64,000 nucleotides of DNA from Cyanidioschyzon merolae (Eukaryota), in assembly GCA_000091205.1 (NCBI GenBank), contig AP006497.2. One strand, 5' to 3'. Shown piece after piece: positions 240 through 36,856 of the stretch. The notes below the pieces were generated by a model. That model worked only from the letters and a program-made list of their open reading frames with translations, had not been told where the DNA came from and searched no databases. How positions within the stretch are numbered: position 1 is the stretch's first letter; each line of letters begins with the position of its first letter. The position numbers were made by a program, and so were the translations under genes.

Positions 240-700
240 ATATAAAATCCAAGGTATGGAGATGAAAGTCGGGGATCCTGGCGGACCGTCATCGCCGGGC
301 GCCCGGAAAAACGAAAAAGTCCTCTTCTCGCCTGTCATCGAGCGAAGAAGCGCAAGTGACGTAGATGAAGAAGAGTGGAGATAGTCAAGAAAAGGTGCTT
401 GATCCACGAGACGATGACGAGACTGTAGTGGCACAGAGGGCACGAGTTCAATGAGCCCCTGCGATCATGGGTTCAACCACCGGCAATGTACGCGAAGAAT
501 TTCGTGAACCGTGACCCCAACGCCGCCATGAATATAACACGACGTGTGGTGCTGGACACGAGTCCCGCGGAGCTGAGGCACTCTAGTTTTGTGAGGAAAC
601 CGCTCAAGGTCGAATTGTGCAAGAAGAAGTAGAAACCAGTAGCAGGTGACCGGTCAAAAAAAGGCGGGGCGGTGTCGGCGAGTGGGTATGCGTACCCCGC
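240..700 (+). mobile_element. Degraded 3' fragment of a TnpB/Fanzor-like element (copy 3), oriented tail-to-tail with copy 1. Includes a conserved 3' flank.
   Basis: The plus-strand frame at 429-632 translates to ...AKNFVNRDPNAAMNITRRVVLDTSPAELRHSSFVRKPLKVELCKKK*. The RDPNAAMNI stretch matches the RuvC-III consensus RDxNAAxNI and is homologous to RDFNAAINIRRCAVLETRPPE of copy 1. An upstream shifted frame (PVIERRSASDVDEE) resembles IPIDEFRTSHSHHE of copy 1, but with stops and frameshifts. DNA at 600-700 aligns with the reverse complement of 1845-1946. Confidence 0.55.
429..632 (+). pseudogene. C-terminal RuvC-III fragment of a TnpB/Fanzor-like nuclease (copy 3), truncated by an upstream in-frame stop at 426-428.
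   Basis: Direct translation gives a RDPNAAMNI motif. The peptide is homologous to the copy 1 C-terminus. It is inverted relative to 1946-2030. Confidence 0.5.
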
Positions 701-1284: not shown

Positions 1285-1878
1285 TTAAGTGTTGCCGACG
1301 TTGCGTTGGGGAACACCACTGGCCAGTTCGACCTTGGTGATGCGCCCGCCCATCTTCATGATCCGCTGCTGCTCGCTGTACCAGGAAGTGAACGGCACCA
1401 TCTTCGTTGTCGCAACGTTCTGCAACTCGCGACCGCTGTCAACACGTGACTGACTGGGCAGCACATACGAGACCTTAAACATGCGGCGATCATTCGCAAC
1501 GCCAGATGACTTGATGCGCCGCGGTCCGAGGTTCCCCGCGCTGCTCCCGTTCATATCGTACCCTGTCATGCGGACGCTCCAGGACGAGTGTGCCAAGCAC
1601 CGCTGCGACTCTGCAGACTTTGCAGAAGCCTTAACACCTGTTCCAAAGAAACTGGTCTGAACGAACATGGTCAACGAACGAAGAAACACAGAGAACAAAG
1701 ATATCGCGAAGTTGTGAGTCAAAAGACGGTGGTGCAGCGAGCGCAGCCGGCGAGCTCGCTTGCGTATTCTCGCCACGTTCTCGCCGGCCGTGTACAGTAG
1801 TGGCGATCGGCGCGCCTTGGACAAAACGTCTCCAACTGATGTGCAGACGCCTCCCCGTCTTTTTGGACCGGCCACCAA
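1285..1878 (-). CDS. Hypothetical protein, function unknown, lying between the two facing TnpB/Fanzor-like 3' ends. Its start may be non-ATG in the track.
   Basis: 197-aa ORF. Its C-terminal half (…KMVPFTSWYSEQQRIMKMGGRITKVELASGVPQ) looks protein-like, but I cannot assign a family. Confidence 0.25.
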   Translation of the reverse strand: MVAGPKRRGGVCTSVGDVLSKARRSPLLYTAGENVARIRKRARRLRSLHHRLLTHNFAISLFSVFLRSLTMFVQTSFFGTGVKASAKSAESQRCLAHSSWSVRMTGYDMNGSSAGNLGPRRIKSSGVANDRRMFKVSYVLPSQSRVDSGRELQNVATTKMVPFTSWYSEQQRIMKMGGRITKVELASGVPQRNVGNT

Positions 1879-1945
1879 CTACTTCTTCCAATTTTATCTC
1901 ATATAGTTCGACCTTAGAAGGTTGTCCAAAAAAGTACCTTCTTGT

Positions 1946-2557
1946 TCACTCTGGAGGTCTCGTCTCCAGCACCGCACATCTCCTGATATTGATGGCAGCG
2001 TTAAAGTCTCGGTTCGCAAACTCCATACGTTTCTTACCATCGTTGGTTGTACTTACTAATGCAAGTAGCCCTCGAAGTTTCGCCCTCCTTTCCATTTGCT
2101 CTTCCGTCAGCGGTCCGTACTTTTTTGCATCCTCAGGGCTCCGCTGGCACTTTTCCATCTCCACTCTCTGGAGCGTGCGCCCCCGCTCATGGTGTGAATG
2201 CGATGTTCGAAACTCATCTATCGGTATTGTAACAAAACGCCGTGCGCACTCCTTATACGTTCTCGTCGTTGGAGCTGGTGCAGTCCCTTTTTGGGTCTTC
2301 CATCGCCCTGCTCCGTACGCTACTACGAGCCTCTGACTTTCATCCTCCTTCAGGGCACTCAACTGATTGAAAAAATTCGCGAACGCCCGCTGCTTCCCAC
2401 AATACAAGTTCATTCGAAGACGAGCCCACCGGGGCTTGGTATACTCCTCCCACAGCGCATCCCAATGGGCAACACGAACTTCCATGAATTTCCGAAAAGC
2501 TTTAAAGTCCGCTCCTCGACTCATCACCTCGCTCAAAGCTTCCAGGTGCTCGTTCAT
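1946..2557 (-). pseudogene. C-terminal segment of the TnpB/Fanzor-like nuclease. It holds the TnpB-like TSQ-region equivalent and RuvC-III. A single TGA separates it, in frame, from the upstream segment.
   Basis: Translation gives ...RLVVAYGAGRW...FVTIPIDEFRTSHSHHERGRTLQRVEMEKCQ...KRMEFANRDFNAAINIRRCAVLETRPPE*. The RDFNAAINI stretch matches RuvC-III RDxNAAxNI. 'IDEFRTS' resembles the V-P-YTSQ segment that precedes the zinc finger in TnpB. The CxxC...CxxC zinc finger is replaced by a His-rich SHSHH...C stretch. Confidence 0.65.
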
Positions 2558-2566
2558 TCCTGAATT

Positions 2567-3655
2567 TCAAGTCTCGATTTTGTTCCTTGCATTCATGCTT
2601 CCCGATTCTCGATAATATCTCGCTCTCGAGAACCTCAACAGACGCATGTCTTTCTGACATAAGTTACCGTCAGGACCATCTTCCGCACGCTTCGGTGCTG
2701 CGATGGTGATGATATTTGTGTTGCCGGGGTCCGCGCCAATGACAAAGTCGTTATCCTGCACTTTCCGCGTCTCAGGATCTGCTTCTTTCTCATCTTCATC
2801 CTTCGTCACCTCAACGACATGCACGTTATCCTGCACCTGCTGCATCGCAGGATCCTCCTTTTCGTTTTCTTCATCCTTCGCCGCGTCAACGACAAGGTCG
2901 TTATTCTCTACCTCCTGCGTCGCGGGATCCGCCTCCTCCTTTTCCTCATGGTTCGCCGAGGGCGGGACTGGTCGATCTCTCTTCAACCGCCGATAGTGTA
3001 CACACAAGGCTACTCCATCGGTTTCGATTAACCCAGTGGACAACTTTTGCTTGCTCACTCTCAGACGTTTGGAGCTGAAGATATTCTTCCAGGACATCTC
3101 CCGGTTTTCACCGGAAAACTCCTCCCTGCTAACATCGAACTCGGGACTGATCTCCTTCATGATGCCATGAGGGATTCTGGAGTCGATAGTCACGAAATGT
3201 GACTTGATATTGGACATTGGAACGACGTTGAAGCGCTTCTCCTTTAGGACAGCCTTCCTTTCCTCCCACTCTAAATTTTCCCTATTCAGCCTCATCTCTG
3301 CTTTGCGTTCGAGCTCTCGGTCGAGAAATACGAAATATCGCAGGAAAAGGCGATAGTATCTTTCCTTATCTTTTTTCAACTCTGATATCTTGTCTGTTGG
3401 ATTCGCCATCCCCAAGATTGCACGGTGCGCTTGTAGAACCGCGCGGATTACAGAAGCCTCATTCGTGCTCTCGTTTGACCCCTTCTCTCCGGCGAATTCG
3501 ACCTCATCTTGATGCTTACGATCTTTCGTGATGCCATTCATAATCGCCCATTTTCCATTGCGCGATAGGCCCGGGTAGAGTGCAATCACGGCGCGTATCA
3601 TGAAACGTTCGAGGCTCGTTGTCAAATGGTTCTTCAGGTTCGTGAGGTACTTCAT
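2567..3655 (-). pseudogene. Middle segment of the TnpB/Fanzor-like nuclease. It contains a REC/WED-like region, acidic 24-aa tandem repeats and RuvC-I.
   Basis: The segment ends ...DNDFVIGADPGNTNIITIAAPKRAEDG..., matching the RuvC-I consensus GIDxG..N of TnpB/Cas12. It is in the same frame as 1946-2557 but separated from it by TGA at 2567-2569. Its N-terminal part (MKYLTNLKNHL...FMIRAVIALYPGLSRNGKWAIMNG) is homologous to the copy 2 peptide IKYLANPNNHMNMNPERFMIPSIFALYPGGSRKARCAIIHG. Confidence 0.65.
2700..2950 (-). repeat. Three tandem units of about 72 bp inside the nuclease ORF. They encode D/E-rich 24-aa repeats (…KDEENEKEDPAMQQVQDNVHVVEVT…).
   Basis: The units '...ttcatccttcgtcacctcaacgacatgcacgttatcctgcacctgctgcatcgcaggatcctcc...' and '...ttcatccttcgccgcgtcaacgacaaggtcgttattctctacctcctgcgtcgcgggatccgcctcc...' are visibly repeated. 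Confidence 0.6.
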
Positions 3656-3793
3656 CGCTCCGCATGTGTAAATATCCCGGTGACTCTTGTACCGACGAAC
3701 CCGTAAGAGGGATGTTTTTCGTGGAAGGCATGCACTAGCTCATTTTTCCTCCGCGCTTCCTCTGTACCAAGCATCAGGTGATGAATAAAGGTC

Positions 3794-4084
3794 TTATCGA
3801 AAAACCCGTCCGGGAACCTCGACCGTTTCCATGTGCGTCACGTCGCGATACATCTCCCTCGCCAAATACATCAGTCCTGACGACGCCTTGACAATACTCT
3901 TGGAGTACGAGTCGACACGTTTTTTGATAGCGTCTCGCAACTTTTCGCTGTACGGATCCTTGATATATCCAAGAAGAAAGGTTTTCACCACCTTCTCGTC
4001 GTACAGCCGTCTTTCTTGCTGCCTTCGACGTAGGGCCTCCCCCTTTTGCTTCTTTTCCTCTTCCTTTTCTTCTGGAATGGGCAC
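3794..4084 (-). pseudogene. N-terminal segment of the TnpB/Fanzor-like nuclease. The track start is GTG. It is frame-disrupted relative to the 2567-3655 segment.
   Basis: The peptide ...VVKTFLLGYIKDPYSEKLRDAIKKRVDSYSKSIVKASSGLMYLAREMYRDVTHMETVEVPGRVFR* is homologous to copy 2 (VKAFLLWNIKDPYEEKLPEAIRNRVASSSLSVCKASSGIIHLLKEMYDYVMELKTVEVPEELF). An alternative frame over the same DNA encodes a K/R-rich stretch (SRRKGRGKEAKGGGPTSKAARKTAVRR). Confidence 0.55.
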
Positions 4085-5877
4085 TGTTTTTTGTTTTTTC
4101 TCCAGCAGCCGGCGACCCTGGGCCTCCAGGATCGTGAACTTGCTTTTTCACAGCTTTCCTTGTTTTGTTTTTTTTTTGAAAAAGAACGCTCTTTGAACCC
4201 TTCTGTTATATACTGCAAAAAACACTAGACTAGACTTGTTTGAAGTTTGAAACAAAAACGAACTGAAAGACTGTACTTTGCTATGACCTCAACGGAAATC
4301 CAACTTTCTACAGCTGAACAACACGCTAGAGATCAGGATCGCGTTTCCGTTCAACGGAGGCATACGCGTCGTGTCTCATGCCTGCCTGATCTCCCAGTTG
4401 CGCTCACTGAGCGCGATGCGTGCACCGCGCGAGACGCCTCACCGATCAATAAAGGACACGTGTCCGACACCCTGCATTGGCACGTGCGTGTTCGCATCGC
4501 ACTGCAGCCAAAATAACGTATCGTAGATCGGAAACTCACGTAGAATGCACTCCTGCTATAGGCTATGTCGTTGGTGCCTATCGCAGTGCCGCCCTGAAGC
4601 ACAGTCGGTGTTGTGGCACGCTTGGATCTCCATAATGCCTCCAGAAGAAGCGTAGCTTTCGCAGCGGCTCACGCTTGTCTGGATGAGGTGTGCATCACAC
4701 TAGCCTTGAAGAGTTTCGTTAGTTTTATTGATCGTAACCAAAGTAGGCATATTAGTGTTCCCGAACACGGCTACAAGTTTATTCCCTATGCTTGTTATGC
4801 ATGCTGCACGGACGCTGCAGGGAGTATCTAATTTGAATTGTGCTTCTATCCTGCGTCATAGGCTGGTACTGATGACAGCTCAAGTCATTTCCATGCTGCT
4901 TTCGTTGTCTAAATTATGGTGCCTGCTTCGTCCTCCGGATCCGGTGATCTTGGCAGAGGCAGAGCACACTCGACGGGCCCTTTGCTATCGGTTTCAGCTT
5001 CTCCTTGTTCAACTCTGGGCTGGGAGGTTCCCCCATAAAGTTGGACCGCGTCAGCTCCGCCGATCGCGCCTCCACCACCATACATCATCTGACATTGATG
5101 GCGTTTTGTCTAAAACGCTCGTGATAGAGCTGAGGTCAAGAAGCGATCAATCTTGACCGACGCTATCAAACGAGCGGTAACAGAAGCTGAGGGCTGTAGC
5201 CGGCACCAGGTGCTCTGGTGCCTACATGCTGGCCGTGAATCGTGCGTGACGAAGCCGCACAGCATGCCACGGTTTCCTAGTACGTAAACCAAGCACGTAT
5301 TCGAAACGTTCGGGTTCAGTGTGATGACGAGTCGCCGCTGCGGCATTCTGGGAAAATCATCCGAGTGCGCTATGGTTTTTCGAATATCGAGCATCATCAC
5401 GAGTGTGGGTGCGCTTCACTGCACGAGTTGCAACGATCACCGAATCCACCATCATCCAAAAGTGACGAAAATTCACATGCGCACCGGCCTCGCACCTCTA
5501 GGTCAGGACGTGCCCACCAGCACGCAAACAAATTTCGTGCCCCGCTGTGCTTTCACCAAAAACGAAAGGAAACATGCGTTTCCTCGACCAGGGATAGAGG
5601 GTTCCGAATTCCTTCAGATACTGCCGATGTTTCGCCCGAACCCAGACCAGCATCTGCAGTGTGCCCACGAGCATACACAGGATGCCTGCGATTGTTCGCA
5701 TCATCGAGATCAATCCTACGCACGCCAGTACCTCAAATATGCAGTTCGGATACGACACGAACTCGAAAAGCAAGCCGAATGGGATCCGCCACCAGCGGCG
5801 ACCGCGAAACCCGATTGCAAACCGCTCCCGCAAGCCATTTGGGCAAACGAGTGGTGCAGCGCGCATGTTCATATAAT

Positions 5878-32772: not shown

Positions 32773-35169
32773 CTACTGCGCTTGGCCCACGGCCGGTGAA
32801 TCCCGCGCTGGACTTTTGGCATCACATCGGCTATCACAAGCTGATCCCGCCTGCGCTCGAGGTCGTATACTGAACAAATATCCGTCGGCATGTGCCGTAC
32901 GCTTTGGTGAGCTCGGAAATACATGGCGCTCGGGCGCAGGGATCGGTTCGATGATGAAGCCACGAGCAAGCATTTCGTTCTCCGCCGTAATTCGCTGGCG
33001 GCGCAGCGCCTCATCAGCACTGAGATCGTCATCTGGATACAGTTTCTCAGCGGCACACACGTGCCAATCTATGGGTGCTCGTAGCACGTCTGGATCGCCT
33101 TCGCGATTGAAGGTTCCCACAGTCTTAACATCTTGTGGTAACCGACCACGTTTGGGTATCCATAAGAAATGACTGCCTTCATAATAGCAGCACTCCAGGG
33201 CGCGCTGAAAATCGATCGTTTCAAAAGTCAGGTGGGGATACTTGGCCTCGTCCATACACATGACCGATTCATGAGCATCCTGTGCATCCTCGAAAAAAGC
33301 GATCGCCGGTCCGAACGGAGTATCGACCGCGATCAATTCGTATATGGGAAACTCCTCATCAGACCGGATATACGATAGCACGGAAACTTCCTCGACATCC
33401 GTGAACGAGACGCGGACAGGATCACTTACCGGTTCGTGGACACCCTTTGCATTGCCGATTCCGTCGTCAGGAGTCCATCGCTCCTCGTCCACAGGCGGCC
33501 GGCTGGACGTGCGCTCATCCAAATCTCGAGGTAGCAAAGCGAGTGGCGAGCGCTCTGCCCCATGCTCTGCAGGTACGAGGTGTCTCGGCTCCGGTGCTAC
33601 GACTGGAAACGATGACGCTGTGGCGCTTCCAGTCGATCGAGCTCGGCCAGCATCCCCTGATCCCGTACTGCTCGGTTCCGCGGATGTGTCGCTGTCAGCA
33701 GTCGCACGACAGCCACCTGTACCGCGTTCCACTGACGCGGGTACAGAGCCGGCCTGCGAGCGCAGCGGATCGCACGATCTATGACAAGGCGTCATCGGGC
33801 CACTGGTGCCACCGAGAAAGGAACTGGAGCGGGATCCTACCCCTGGCGTCGCCCCCGATGTCCAGTTCCTCGTCATTTTGGTCTCATTGAGCCAAAAAGG
33901 ATTCCACTCAGCTAACTCGCGTTCCCATGCAGCAACAGCTGACCGTTTCACAGCGTCAAGAACAAAAGTGGGCGGTGATTCAAAAGTGGGTAGGCCGACT
34001 TGCTCCCAAATGAAATCCCAGAGGCGCTCGAGCCACCGCAGAGGACTTCCACGACCACTGATCCCGATGTCACGGTCCATTGGTGGCCCTGGAAGGCAGT
34101 CCGCTGACAACGACGGTGCTCCGGATGTCGCATCATACTCTGACACGACGGACTGCTGGCTGTCGTCCGCCCAGGGCCCAAAGCCAAGAAGCCCCCAGAG
34201 ACCACCGCCCCCGCCTAACCCTCGTTTTCGGCGCCAGCGTTGGAGCATTATCTTGTTGATCTCGTTCAGACGCAACCGGAAATCGTCTTCCGAGCTTGAA
34301 AAACTCGCTGGAAGAACCGCGGGGCTCGGGGGCCGCCGCCCTCCAATCGCCACCGTCGACCCGCCTAGCACAGGCTGCTTCGACAGGCTCTCGTTCAATT
34401 TCACCAGTTCTCCAAAAAGCTCCCGCCAACGCAAGCGCTCTGCCTCCTCCGTTTCCACCGCATTCTCTGAGGCGCCAGTCCCGACCGCTAGCGCAGCTCG
34501 CGGCAAGCAGCGAACGCGAGGTATCCCCGGTCGCTCACGCACCAACAACGTAGACGGTGTCACAACACGTCCATTCGAGCAGCCCGCGCTCAGCGTTGTT
34601 GAACTCGGCGATACATAGCCAACACTGAGGCCAGAATCAACCGAGCTCGACTCATGAGAACGCCACCACTGGCTCCGACCTGGAGGCGGCGAAGGCGTTT
34701 CCGTAACAGCTGTAGTGCGCTGCGGTGGACGCTTCCACGCATACGGCCAAACAGACGCCTGTAGTGCGCGCTGCCGCCCGGGCTGTGTTGCGGCAAGTGC
34801 GTTCGTTGCCTCCGATCGAGCCTGTGCGGGCTTCAGCCAAAACATATGCGTCGTGTTAGAAGGAGCCGTGCCCAGGCCTATAGTCCAATGAAAGACGACG
34901 AGTAGCGCGCACTGTTCAAGCGCGTGCGCGCCATCGACGTATCGAGCGCGCCCGGCGGGATTTGGAAATGGGTGCGCAGCGCGCCGAGACGTTGAGATCG
35001 CGCCTTCGGCATCATGGACGCGCACGTCGGTTGCTCGCCGCAAATTGCCACGCACGCGATGGGGTCTAGAAGAAACTGTAATAATTTGTAGATTTATGGA
35101 TGGTATGGATAAGAGGGGACACAGTGCTTGGACGCGCGATCGCCGCAGCTGGGACACGAATGGACACAA
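32773..35169 (-). CDS. Hypothetical protein. Only the C-terminal third looks like a genuine conserved domain. The N-terminal part overlaps decayed TnpB/Fanzor copy 2 and may be a spurious extension.
   Basis: It is a long S/P/R-rich ORF. The C-terminal region is non-repetitive (...EFPIYELIAVDTPFGPAIAFFEDAQDAHESVMCMDEAKYPHLTFETIDFQRALECCYYEGSHFLWIPKRGRLPQDVKTVG...). Confidence 0.3.
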   Translation of the reverse strand: MCPFVSQLRRSRVQALCPLLSIPSINLQIITVSSRPHRVRGNLRRATDVRVHDAEGAISTSRRAAHPFPNPAGRARYVDGAHALEQCALLVVFHWTIGLGTAPSNTTHMFWLKPAQARSEATNALAATQPGRQRALQASVWPYAWKRPPQRTTAVTETPSPPPGRSQWWRSHESSSVDSGLSVGYVSPSSTTLSAGCSNGRVVTPSTLLVRERPGIPRVRCLPRAALAVGTGASENAVETEEAERLRWRELFGELVKLNESLSKQPVLGGSTVAIGGRRPPSPAVLPASFSSSEDDFRLRLNEINKIMLQRWRRKRGLGGGGGLWGLLGFGPWADDSQQSVVSEYDATSGAPSLSADCLPGPPMDRDIGISGRGSPLRWLERLWDFIWEQVGLPTFESPPTFVLDAVKRSAVAAWERELAEWNPFWLNETKMTRNWTSGATPGVGSRSSSFLGGTSGPMTPCHRSCDPLRSQAGSVPASVERGTGGCRATADSDTSAEPSSTGSGDAGRARSTGSATASSFPVVAPEPRHLVPAEHGAERSPLALLPRDLDERTSSRPPVDEERWTPDDGIGNAKGVHEPVSDPVRVSFTDVEEVSVLSYIRSDEEFPIYELIAVDTPFGPAIAFFEDAQDAHESVMCMDEAKYPHLTFETIDFQRALECCYYEGSHFLWIPKRGRLPQDVKTVGTFNREGDPDVLRAPIDWHVCAAEKLYPDDDLSADEALRRQRITAENEMLARGFIIEPIPAPERHVFPSSPKRTAHADGYLFSIRPRAQAGSACDSRCDAKSPARDSPAVGQAQ

Positions 35170-36160
35170 GCAGGGCGCTGATGCTCGGTGCTCCCGGAGC
35201 GCGCTGCACGCATCACAGAGGCTTCATTCGTTCTCCTGTGTGTGATGTCTTCTCGTCGACGAATCCGTTCTCATCTTCATGCTGGCGATCGTTGTTCGAG
35301 CCATGGATGATGGCACATCTCGCCTTGCGAGAGCCGCCCGGGTACAGCGCAAAGATGGAGGGTATCATGAAACGTTCGGGGTTCATGTTCATATGGTTGT
35401 TCGGGTTCGCGAGGTACTTGATTGCGCCGTATTCGTAAACAACCGAGTCGCCCCTGAATAAAATAACGTTGAAGCGGTATTCAGCATAATTTTCATGGAG
35501 GGCATGCACTCGCTCGTTTCTCCTCGACGTTTCCCCCGTGCCAAGCATTAGGCGTCTGTTGCAGGTAACGTTGAAAAGCTCCTCCGGAACCTCGACCGTT
35601 TTCAATTCCATAACGTAATCGTACATCTCTTTCAATAAATGGATTATTCCTGAAGAAGCCTTGCAAACACTCAAGGAGCTGGACGCGACACGGTTTCTGA
35701 TAGCCTCTGGCAGCTTTTCCTCATAGGGATCCTTGATATTCCATAGAAGAAAGGCTTTCACCTCTATCTCGTCGATCTGCAATCTTTCGGCTAGCTTCTG
35801 ACGTCGGACCTCCGGCTTTCGCTTCTTTTCTTCTCCTGTTCCTTTTTACTCGGTTGTGAATTTCGTGTTGTTCTGGCAGCCGGTGATACCGGCCCAGCAA
35901 GATCCTCGACTTCCTTCTGCATAATGCTATGTTTTTGGAAGAAACACACTTTGAACGCATCTGCTATAAACCGTGAAAAATCTCTTGAATCCACTTACTT
36001 GACGCTTGAAGCACAACTGAAATGAAAGACTGTATTTTGTCACAACTTTAACCGAAATATATCTTGTACGGTAGAACGAAACGCTATTCGTTAGAAGCGC
36101 GTTCCTCCTCAACGGCGAGATGCGCGTCGTTGCTCTCGGCTGCGGAATATGGAGGTGCGC
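35000..36160 (-). mobile_element. Decayed N-terminal fragment of a TnpB/Fanzor-like element (copy 2) with a conserved 5' leader.
   Basis: The peptide at 35213-35782 is homologous to copy 1, matching both its N-terminal segment (3794-4084) and the start of its middle segment. The leader at 35950-36160 aligns with 4190-4395. Protein-level similarity continues about 60 nt past the stop at 35213 (HEDENGFVDEKTSHTGERMKPL*CVQRAPGA against HQDEVEFAGEKGSNESTNEASVIRAVLQAHRA). Confidence 0.55.
35213..35782 (-). pseudogene. Truncated N-terminal portion of a TnpB/Fanzor-like nuclease (copy 2).
   Basis: MQIDEIEVKAFLLWNIKDPYEEKL...IKYLANPNNHMNMNPERFMIPSIFALYPGGSRKARCAIIHGSNNDRQHEDENGFVDEKTSH aligns with the copy 1 segments. 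Confidence 0.55.
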
Positions 36161-36856
36161 GACCCGACCCCAATATATAGAACAAAGAGCAGAAACTAAC
36201 CACTAACTTGCAACGACGTTACGATTTCTTTCCCTCTCTATGATAAACATGAAAAGAGGGTAGGGCTTTTCGTGCTGTCGAACGTTCGCCTTCTAGGCCG
36301 AGGTTCCCGCGGGCCGGACGAGTCTGCCGTGCAATCGCTCCGTATTCCTCTGCAGTGGCAGGTGCTGTGGTGAGATCTGAGCAACTCTTCTGCAGCGCAG
36401 GTAATTCTGGGACTCGGAGCGGGTAGCATGCGTCTGGGCGTTGCGCTTGTCCTAGTGGACATCTAGTGTGTCGCTTCGCGCTGTCGCAGGTAGTACGTTT
36501 GTCTGTGCAGATCGCAGGCTCCCAGCATGATAACTAGCCCTGATTCCGTGTCAGATGGAGCATCCCTCGATCCGACGCCCTATGCGGTTTGGCAAAGCCG
36601 TTCCAGCGTGGTGCTGCATCCCTACCAACGATATAGGCGCTTTGGCTGGAACTCAAAGCAGGCACTCGGCATAAGATAGAGCCTAGGAAAACGCCAGCAC
36701 ATCCGAGAGGAAGTAAAACGAACGGAGCCTGGAAACAGAGCGTGGAATCATGGATACGTCAACGCGCGCTATTCTCAAGGGCATCGGTCACGGAACGCTG
36801 GCCTCTGTGTCAACGACTCGCTCGAAACCGAATTCCGTTACGTCTCGCCTCTTCGT

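Follow-up and report, generated by a model that had tools for sequence, protein, structure and literature searches.

We analysed a 64,000-nucleotide stretch of the Cyanidioschyzon merolae genome (NCBI GenBank assembly GCA_000091205.1, contig AP006497.2; hereafter the window) that holds decayed copies of a mobile element with a Fanzor-type gene. Two of them, i.e. copy 1 (w1782–4420, minus strand) and copy 3 (w35203–36779, minus strand; the copy under study), share a piece of non-coding DNA, the leader, directly upstream of their coding sequences. Here, w denotes a position in the window and c a position in the published 3169-bp consensus of the family CMe-1A, taken from Additional file 2 of Bao & Jurka 2013 (PMC3627910). 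Our results make it highly probable that copy 3 is a truncated, dead copy of CMe-1A, that it shares the leader (c645–905) with copy 1 by descent, and that the breakpoint at which the similarity of the two copies ends upstream is a seam between the Fanzor core and its 5′ modules. The family of both copies was published for this genome in 2013, composite 5′ structure included.

Family identity and homology of copies 1 and 3

CMe-1A was described in C. merolae as a family of ∼150 copies, each ∼80% identical to a ∼3-kb consensus and some of them still coding. It was reported to have no terminal inverted repeats (TIRs), its classification was given as unknown and its target-site duplications (TSDs) as undetermined, and no transposase has been linked to it; its 5′ 635 bp are 95% identical to TE-N2_CMe, a separate element of ∼70 copies (Bao & Jurka 2013, Mob DNA 4:12, PMC3627910). 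The window belongs to the same host: three of its long host open reading frames (ORFs) are exact matches to the C. merolae 10D proteins BAM81602 (CMO259C), BAM81607 (MFS transporter) and BAM81611 (plant organellar DNA polymerase). In blastn comparisons, c90–1624 of the consensus aligns with w36733–35203 of copy 3 at 78.7% over 1541 columns, while c671–2196 and c2118–3145 align with w4391–2881 (83%) and w2809–1782 (88.5%) of copy 1, i.e. both copies show the ∼80% DNA similarity of the family. The 734-aa consensus product also matches both copies in tblastn searches. Published and window copies are alike in divergence level, ∼3-kb length, absence of TIRs, the single-exon 734-aa Fanzor1 ORF and the TE-N2-like 5′ module.

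For TIRs, only weak arms of 16–24 nt with 75–81% complementarity were found in w1650–5200, none of them pairing element boundaries, and no TSDs were recognised on inspecting the flanks of copies with unique junctions. Unlike the CMe-1A consensus, the two window copies are incomplete and dead: both are fragments, and neither has both consensus termini (c1 and c3169). The TE-N2_CMe-like 5′ 635 bp are represented in copy 3 and missing from copy 1, where the DNA upstream bears no relation to this module; judged by its sequence, copy 1 is a related subtype and not canonical CMe-1A. The same difference from the published description extends to about half of the distinct metagenome copies introduced below, which lack the TE-N2 module and have other sequence upstream of c645. 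These alternative upstream sequences (i.e. the segment of our class B and an inverted TE-N2 5′ end) are unmentioned in the 2013 CMe-1A text.

The initial annotation had proposed that the DNA upstream of both ORFs is conserved, with w4190–4395 aligning with w35950–36160. This shared leader is real, and the two blocks are non-coding as claimed; within the range suggested for a pairwise DNA alignment, which confirmed the homology, w4085–4151 proves to be coding. When w1000–5500 was compared with the window by blastn, a single continuous high-scoring segment pair (HSP) joined w3441–4385 to w35206–36143 (68.9% identity, 957 columns, E 6.9e-97), extending from coding sequence through ∼240–270 bp of upstream DNA. 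Between copies 1 and 3, identity is 65% in the leader (173/266) and 70% in the ORF, and falls to 32% upstream of w36180 and 41% downstream of w35205. On the upstream side, the break in similarity therefore exists, but it lies ∼20 bp further out than the ∼w4395 and ∼w36160 first given: identity rises at ∼w4414/w36171, and the leader profile hidden Markov model (HMM) ends at w4420/w36177. On the downstream side, homology had been thought to fade into a 798-aa ORF (w32773–35169). We find an abrupt stop at w35203–35206 instead, outside that ORF and sharp in ∼80 pairwise alignments, only a few of which reach w35182.

A-rich runs, such as the one before the start codon, raise the question of whether the leader similarity might reflect chance or shared A/T-rich, low-complexity composition. 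The probability of this is negligible. The leader alone (w4150–4420 against w35905–36175) reaches a local score of 100, compared with 19.1 ± 2.6 for 300 dinucleotide-preserving shuffles (z = 31), and after removal of the A-rich run beside the start codon the score is still 79 against 17.7 ± 2.5 (z = 24), which argues that the similarity is not compositional. Together with leader profile E-values of 1e-83 for copy 1 and 5e-62 for copy 3, and with the presence of the leader sequence in 36 distinct copies elsewhere, these shuffles refute the low-complexity explanation.

Relatives were collected from metagenome contigs. Of 171 relatives detected, 80 loci were taken for comparison and reduced to ∼40 distinct copies, which provide 42 distinct 5′ and 41 distinct 3′ regions; one locus (L032) is 99% identical to the window. 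Except for the class A module, conservation averages below are mean pairwise identities over 26 distinct full-length copies. The occurrence of ∼40 distinct copies in differing flanks bears out the view that these are copies of a mobile element and not host-gene paralogues.

The breakpoint and the alternative 5′ modules

We then compared the sequences on either side of the breakpoint. On the coordinate map, c635 corresponds to w36185, c645 to w36175 and w4418, c660 to w36160, and the ATG (c906) to w35922 and w4151. The breakpoint between copies 1 and 3 (∼c645–670) lies within 10–30 bp of the point at which the TE-N2_CMe-like part ends according to the publication. Beyond it, copy 3 continues for ∼560–600 bp as a TE-N2-like module that is 79% identical to the consensus (431/546 positions), running to w36733 by blastn and to w36779 by profile, and the copy 1 subfamily continues for at least 35–65 bp.

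The 42 distinct 5′ regions fall into a small number of arrangements. Sixteen begin at c1–90, with unrelated DNA beyond, and represent canonical CMe-1A with the TE-N2 module (class A, which includes copy 3); two begin inside this module; and 20 begin at c638–687 despite several hundred bases of upstream sequence (copy 1 is in this group, at c671), seven of them with an inverted TE-N2 5′ part upstream. The group of 20 is made up of classes B and C and a few singletons. The class A module is conserved throughout at a mean pairwise identity of 0.6–0.7, the same level as the leader; its copies share one terminus, (T-run)CGATGACAAAACGTTTAC..., and have unrelated flanks outside it. In class B (the copy 1 type), four distinct clusters (L013, L026/27, L034/37/38 and L063/64) stop matching copy 1 at w4455–4471, and in other copies the similarity persists to w4595, w4843, w4969 or w4992. 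In class C, the inverted TE-N2 5′ terminus, T-run included, abuts the Fanzor core directly. Singleton 5′ contexts occur in L001, L012/L033 and L015. No significant homology was found by nhmmer between the class A module (c570–645) and the class B or class C upstream segments (best E 0.098), and the 5′ modules were therefore treated as unrelated.

Two further details of the module ends were observed. The class C copies (L008:1356–1649, L018:5469–5672, L030:5351–5644, L051, L053, L068/74–77 and L003) carry c4–282 in inverted orientation, ending in ...GTCATCGAAAAAA and abutting the core at ∼c645, i.e. a mirror of the canonical order with the other end of TE-N2. Also, a run of 5–6 T precedes c1 (CGATGAC...) in at least eight distinct class A copies (L020:5010–5016, L022, L070, L072, L042 and others). 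The T-run may mean that the published CMe-1A/TE-N2 consensus lacks a few bases at the 5′ end, or that the element prefers a T-rich target.

Taken at the level of sequence comparison, the breakpoint is a seam that joins a shared core (leader, ORF and 3′ tail) to subtype-specific 5′ modules, and not the left end of either copy. One Fanzor core would have been joined at ∼c635–645 to (i) the 635-bp TE-N2_CMe sequence in canonical CMe-1A, including copy 3; (ii) a different segment with the palindrome GGACACGTGTCC in the copy 1 subtype; and (iii) the inverted TE-N2 5′ end in a third subtype. With different modules joined at the seam, the mobile units would extend past the breakpoint in both copies. 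A common Fanzor part with alternative 5′ regions is likewise seen in the MCi-2 subfamilies and in the Sola2-, IS4- and Mariner-Fanzor chimeras (Bao & Jurka 2013). Unlike those Fanzor1 chimeras, whose alternative part often encodes a transposase with TIRs or TSDs, the CMe-1 modules encode nothing recognisable.

The initial annotation had instead read the end of similarity as the left end of a mobile element in both copies, with the leader as its terminal region. The boundary is indeed reproduced in other copies, nearly half of the distinct 5′ regions (20/42) breaking at c638–687, and mean pairwise identity climbs from 0.23 to >0.6 between w4460 and w4400, as would be expected at an element end. 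Such an end is nevertheless quite improbable, because canonical CMe-1A sequence continues past it in copy 3, because the 16 class A copies carry the TE-N2 module back to c1–90, and because copies of the copy 1 subtype stay similar up to w4455–4485 (four clusters) or over a much longer stretch (others). Terminal inverted repeats and target-site duplications, for which a search had been suggested, were not recognisable at either proposed boundary. For copies 1 and 3, the continuing 5′ modules contradict the breakpoint as a left end.

Some observations nevertheless weigh against descent from a single composite element as the full account. Classes A, B and C as well as L001 and L012 have the seam at the same place to within ∼3–5 nt, although their upstream sequences are unrelated. 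Its recurrence in at least four unrelated upstream contexts is not explained by descent alone; the seam may be a discrete end or a site at which recombination is favoured. Neighbour-joining trees of the ORF and of the leader are star-like and unsupported, and each 5′ module may have been acquired once or repeatedly. Furthermore, one solo TE-N2-like copy that was inspected (L054:11222–11802, minus strand) aligns from c1 to ∼c582 and then diverges, which makes it ∼50 bp shorter than TE-N2_CMe as published (635 bp).

These observations leave some room for the view that the Fanzor core (c645–3169) is or was independently mobile, with its left end at a GC-rich palindrome (GCGCTCGGTGAGCGC, in class A GCGCGGTCGATACGCGC); we regard this as unlikely, and equally unlikely that its repeated joining to TE-N2 termini in both orientations and to other modules reflects site-specific insertion or recombination. 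The near-constant junction behind unrelated sequences and the direct contact of the inverted TE-N2 terminus with the core in class C would fit an independently mobile core, as would the hairpin at the 3′ terminus described below. The first 96 nt of copy 1 also fold somewhat better than shuffles (z −2.1, 9/200 shuffles as good), but the same stretch of the class A consensus folds no better than shuffles (z +0.6), and RNAalifold shows no shared structure. The left flanks have no common motif resembling a target-adjacent motif (TAM) in five contexts, no TSD was seen and no transposase is linked to the family. Moreover, one ancient event with subsequent amplification could lie behind each of the few contexts, and the recurrent seam may thus represent a few ancient chimeric events that were later amplified.

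TnpB elements of the IS200/IS605 type have left and right ends with subterminal hairpins, a TAM and a 3′ guide RNA. CMe-1 resembles them in its lack of TIRs, its 3′-terminal hairpin, the GC palindrome with which the shared core begins and a nuclease gene that fills most of the element. Unlike them, it has no TnpA and no common TAM-like motif in the left flank, its left palindrome is unsupported as a conserved structure (a GC palindrome is present, with a class A fold not above shuffles), and it has a eukaryotic host and extra 5′ modules.

The leader, the 3′ terminus and the Fanzor1 protein

The mean pairwise identity of the leader among the full-length copies is 0.67, compared with 0.72–0.78 at third codon positions, 0.79–0.86 at first and second codon positions and 0.23 in the flanks. 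As the leader is no better conserved than third codon positions, shared descent and neutral decay suffice, with no sign of extra constraint. Comparison of copy 1 with copy 3 gives identities of 75%, 70% and 68% for the three codon positions; such equal divergence argues against coding constraint, and the leader lies close by at 65%. The leader would be alike in the two copies because both come from the same ancestral element and have diverged at about the neutral rate. Nothing in these comparisons indicates that it is maintained in copies 1 and 3, where it appears to be a relic.

In an active ancestor, c645–905 most likely held the promoter and 5′ untranslated region (UTR) of the Fanzor1 gene. 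We infer this because the leader directly adjoins the ATG in all ORF-bearing copies, irrespective of which module precedes it, and because it contains a T(A/T)TATA(A/G)C block ∼60–65 nt before the ATG, followed by a conserved GTTCAAAGaGcGTTCTTTtTCAAAAAA and an A-rich run (consensus TTTTTCGCnGTnTATAaCAGAAGcGTTCAAAGaGcGTTCTTTtTCAAAAAA). Position and the TATA-like motif are what points to a promoter and 5′ UTR, and the strict TATA-like hexamer occurs in just 20 of 36 copies, which speaks against such a function.

In IscB systems, the guide-RNA scaffold is encoded 5′ of the gene. Conservation of the leader as a functional structured RNA of this kind (e.g. a 5′-encoded guide-RNA scaffold) might explain why a non-coding sequence is kept in all ORF-bearing copies, some of its blocks (e.g. 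CGCCGTTGAAGGGAAACG) being well conserved. We consider this very unlikely, because conservation is no higher than at synonymous sites and no consensus structure was found on either strand in 36 leaders by RNAalifold with column-shuffle controls (energy ∼0, z −1.25 or undefined). The same RNAalifold test also found no structure in the sense strand of 32 3′ tails, where a guide RNA is expected, so that it has little power on such decayed copies and gives a weak negative only. Scans of the entire window for Rfam families (at the gathering threshold) and for tRNAs gave no match, the leader included. Where Fanzor1 systems have been characterised, the guide RNA maps to the 3′ end of the element and runs beyond its right end (10.1101/2023.08.09.552727; 8gkh complex), and a 5′ guide RNA is therefore not expected.

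The family has a sharply defined 3′ terminus: in all copies compared, the match to copy 1 ends at w1775–1792. Most copies have ∼25 further bases that form a terminal hairpin; copy 1, which ends at w1782, lacks these final 24 bp of the consensus (c3146–3169) just as it lacks the TE-N2 module. The hairpin folds better than shuffles (z −1.7 to −4.4), and the 3′ tail is conserved up to it. It occurs in two sequence variants, GTCGTTCGACTTTCGAACGGC (z −2.4) and AACGTTTTTCTTTTGAAAGACGTT (z −4.4), e.g. at L016:8380–8407 and L054:8430–8465. Its imperfections are of the G·U type on the sense strand only, which hints at a structure formed at the RNA level and not at the DNA level.

The Fanzor assignment in the initial annotation holds, at the level of the Fanzor1 family. 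In large protein collections, the copy 1 protein has 44 close relatives, and 1232 relatives at E ≤ 1e-3 among cluster representatives. On its own, it gave nothing above threshold in Pfam or among PDB sequences, and a profile of its close homologues only did not match known Fanzor1 proteins; a profile of 89 distant, full-length relatives was needed, and this matches the solved Fanzor1 chains 9cf0 from Parasitella (E 1.3e-21), 8gkh from Spizellomyces (2.1e-12) and 9cer from Guillardia (4e-8). An AlphaFold2 (AF2) model was built for an intact relative (P0001, 73% identical to copy 1) on the deep alignment of the 89-relative profile, and has a predicted local distance difference test (pLDDT) score of 82 and a predicted template-modelling (TM) score of 0.80; a shallow-alignment model (pLDDT 37) was discarded. 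In a Foldseek search of the PDB, the top seven matches of this model are all Fanzor1 proteins (SpuFz, PpFz and GtFz; E 2e-16 to 3e-13), followed by Cas12 at E > 0.04, and its TM-score against SpuFz, normalised to the target, is 0.71–0.72 (E 2e-16). The predicted fold of the intact relative has the WED/REC/RuvC architecture of Fanzor1. Profile and predicted fold together support membership of the CMe-1 protein in the Fanzor1 family, with a predicted nuclease activity.

The published Fanzor1 motif reads D-X(125,275)-[TS][TS]-X-X-[C4 zinc finger]-X(5,50)-RD (Bao & Jurka 2013, PMC3627910). Copy 1 has GADPG, DEFRTS and NRDFNAAINI at a compatible spacing and lacks the four zinc-finger cysteines, reading TSHSHHERGRTLQ...EKCQ at that place; copy 3, which ends at residue 240, has none of the GADPG, DEFRTS and RDFNAAINI motifs. 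With the characterised proteins SpuFz1 (8gkh), PpFz (9cf0) and GtFz (9cer), the family shares the profile matches, the predicted fold and, in copy 1, the catalytic motifs DPG, DEFRTS and RDxNAAxNI. It differs from them in that sequence identity is 12–15%, the C4 zinc finger is not conserved in the CMe-1 family, a disordered 25-aa tandem-repeat insertion precedes RuvC-I, and copy 3 lacks the entire nuclease half. The insertion corresponds in the copy 1 ORF to a 75-bp tandem repeat at w2737–2961 (minus strand; 25 aa, acidic, of the DPATQEVQDNDxVVD type), with three units in copy 1, one in the published consensus (c2117–2196) and up to six in L053; in the AF2 model, it comprises residues 376–469, which are disordered and lie just before RuvC-I.

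Only one of the 26 full-length copies has an intact ORF. An A-run near codons 17–22 (consensus GGAAAAAAACGAAAAACAG; ∼w4085–4110, minus strand, and L001:9985–10005) varies by ±1 nt among copies, so that the first ∼20 codons are in another frame in copy 1 and also in the L001 gene, which is intact apart from this and was called from a downstream GTG start.

Anatomy of the window copies and implications

The coordinates of all elements are collected in Table 1. Copy 3 is decayed, as had been noticed, with broken frames and no RuvC half. Its ATG lies at w35922–35920, its longest ORF spans w35213–35782, and at least two frameshifts place residues 1–37, 33–227 and 227–240 in three different frames in tblastn alignments; its leader agrees with the consensus at 198/253 positions. 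The leader of copy 1 agrees at 210/260 positions, and its ORF carries GTG (w4151–4149) in place of the ATG, a +1 shift in the A-run, a frameshifted patch at ∼w3815–3700 and in-frame stops at w3796–3794 and w2569–2567.

Table 1. Elements of the CMe-1 family in the window (positions in the window; c, consensus positions)
Feature	Position	Strand	Basis
Copy 3, 5′ fragment of CMe-1A (∼c45/90–1624), truncated at both ends	35203–36779	−	Consensus blastn; 5′ module profile to w36779
TE-N2_CMe-like 5′ module of copy 3 (∼c45–635)	36186–36779	−	nhmmer profile from 19 class A copies, E 4.5e-162
Core leader of copy 3 (c645–905), non-coding, directly 5′ of the ATG	35923–36177	−	nhmmer leader profile, E 4.7e-62
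Decayed N-terminal coding part of copy 3, Fanzor1 residues 1–240	35203–35922	−	tblastn of the 734-aa consensus protein
Copy 1, CMe-1 core (c645–3145)	1782–4420	−	Consensus blastn; leader profile to w4420; 3′ alignment
Core leader of copy 1 (c645–905)	4152–4420	−	nhmmer, E 1.1e-83
Class B 5′ segment of copy 1 with palindrome GGACACGTGTCC	4421–4485	−	HSP ends at w4455–4471 in four other distinct clusters
Copy 1 Fanzor1 reading frame, decayed	1820–4151	−	Translation; tblastn of residues 18–734 at 72%; alignment with copy 3
Internally deleted remnant: leader end and first codons (c842–969), then C-terminal codons (c2907–3084)	171–318, 501–679	+	Consensus blastn; tblastn; leader profile, E 6e-4
3′ coding-end remnant (residues 676–719) of a further copy	4971–5103	−	tblastn; blastn; direct repeat D2 1949–1996/5055–5102, 75%

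The label of copy 3 as a third copy is correct, another remnant lying on the plus strand at w171–318 and w501–679. In the consensus blastn, its two parts are placed at w194–318 (c842–969) and w501–679 (c2907–3084); ∼180 bp of other sequence separate them, ∼1.9 kb of the element are gone, and the remnant ends ∼24 bp short of the consensus stop codon. The remnant at w4971–5103 represents the last ∼44 codons of a copy in the orientation of copy 1, ∼550 bp upstream of the copy 1 leader. Remnants of 3′ ends likewise lie upstream of copies in L009, L040, L043/44/49 and L037/38, which suggests tandem or nearby insertions, or duplicated dimers. At w17448–17550 (plus strand), the TE-N2-like module has a weak nhmmer match over its first ∼100 positions (E 3.9e-5), possibly a small solo TE-N2-like fragment. 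The 5′ end of copy 3 lies <80 bp (w36779–36857) from the start codon of a divergent MFS-transporter gene (BAM81607, w36857–38266), and the remnant therefore occupies the upstream region of that gene.

In brief, the finding is a re-discovery of two decayed copies of a published family and carries little weight beyond annotation. Because C. merolae is amenable to genetic work, a test of the leader as a native Fanzor1 promoter is feasible. If the core had a site-specific end, to which at least four modules (both TE-N2_CMe termini among them) were joined at the same nucleotide, give or take a few, this would imply directed exchange of 5′ ends or targeted insertion, possibly guided by a hairpin or by the nuclease. 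A site-specific junction at the seam would thus bear on how transposase-less Fanzor1 elements such as CMe-1A move.

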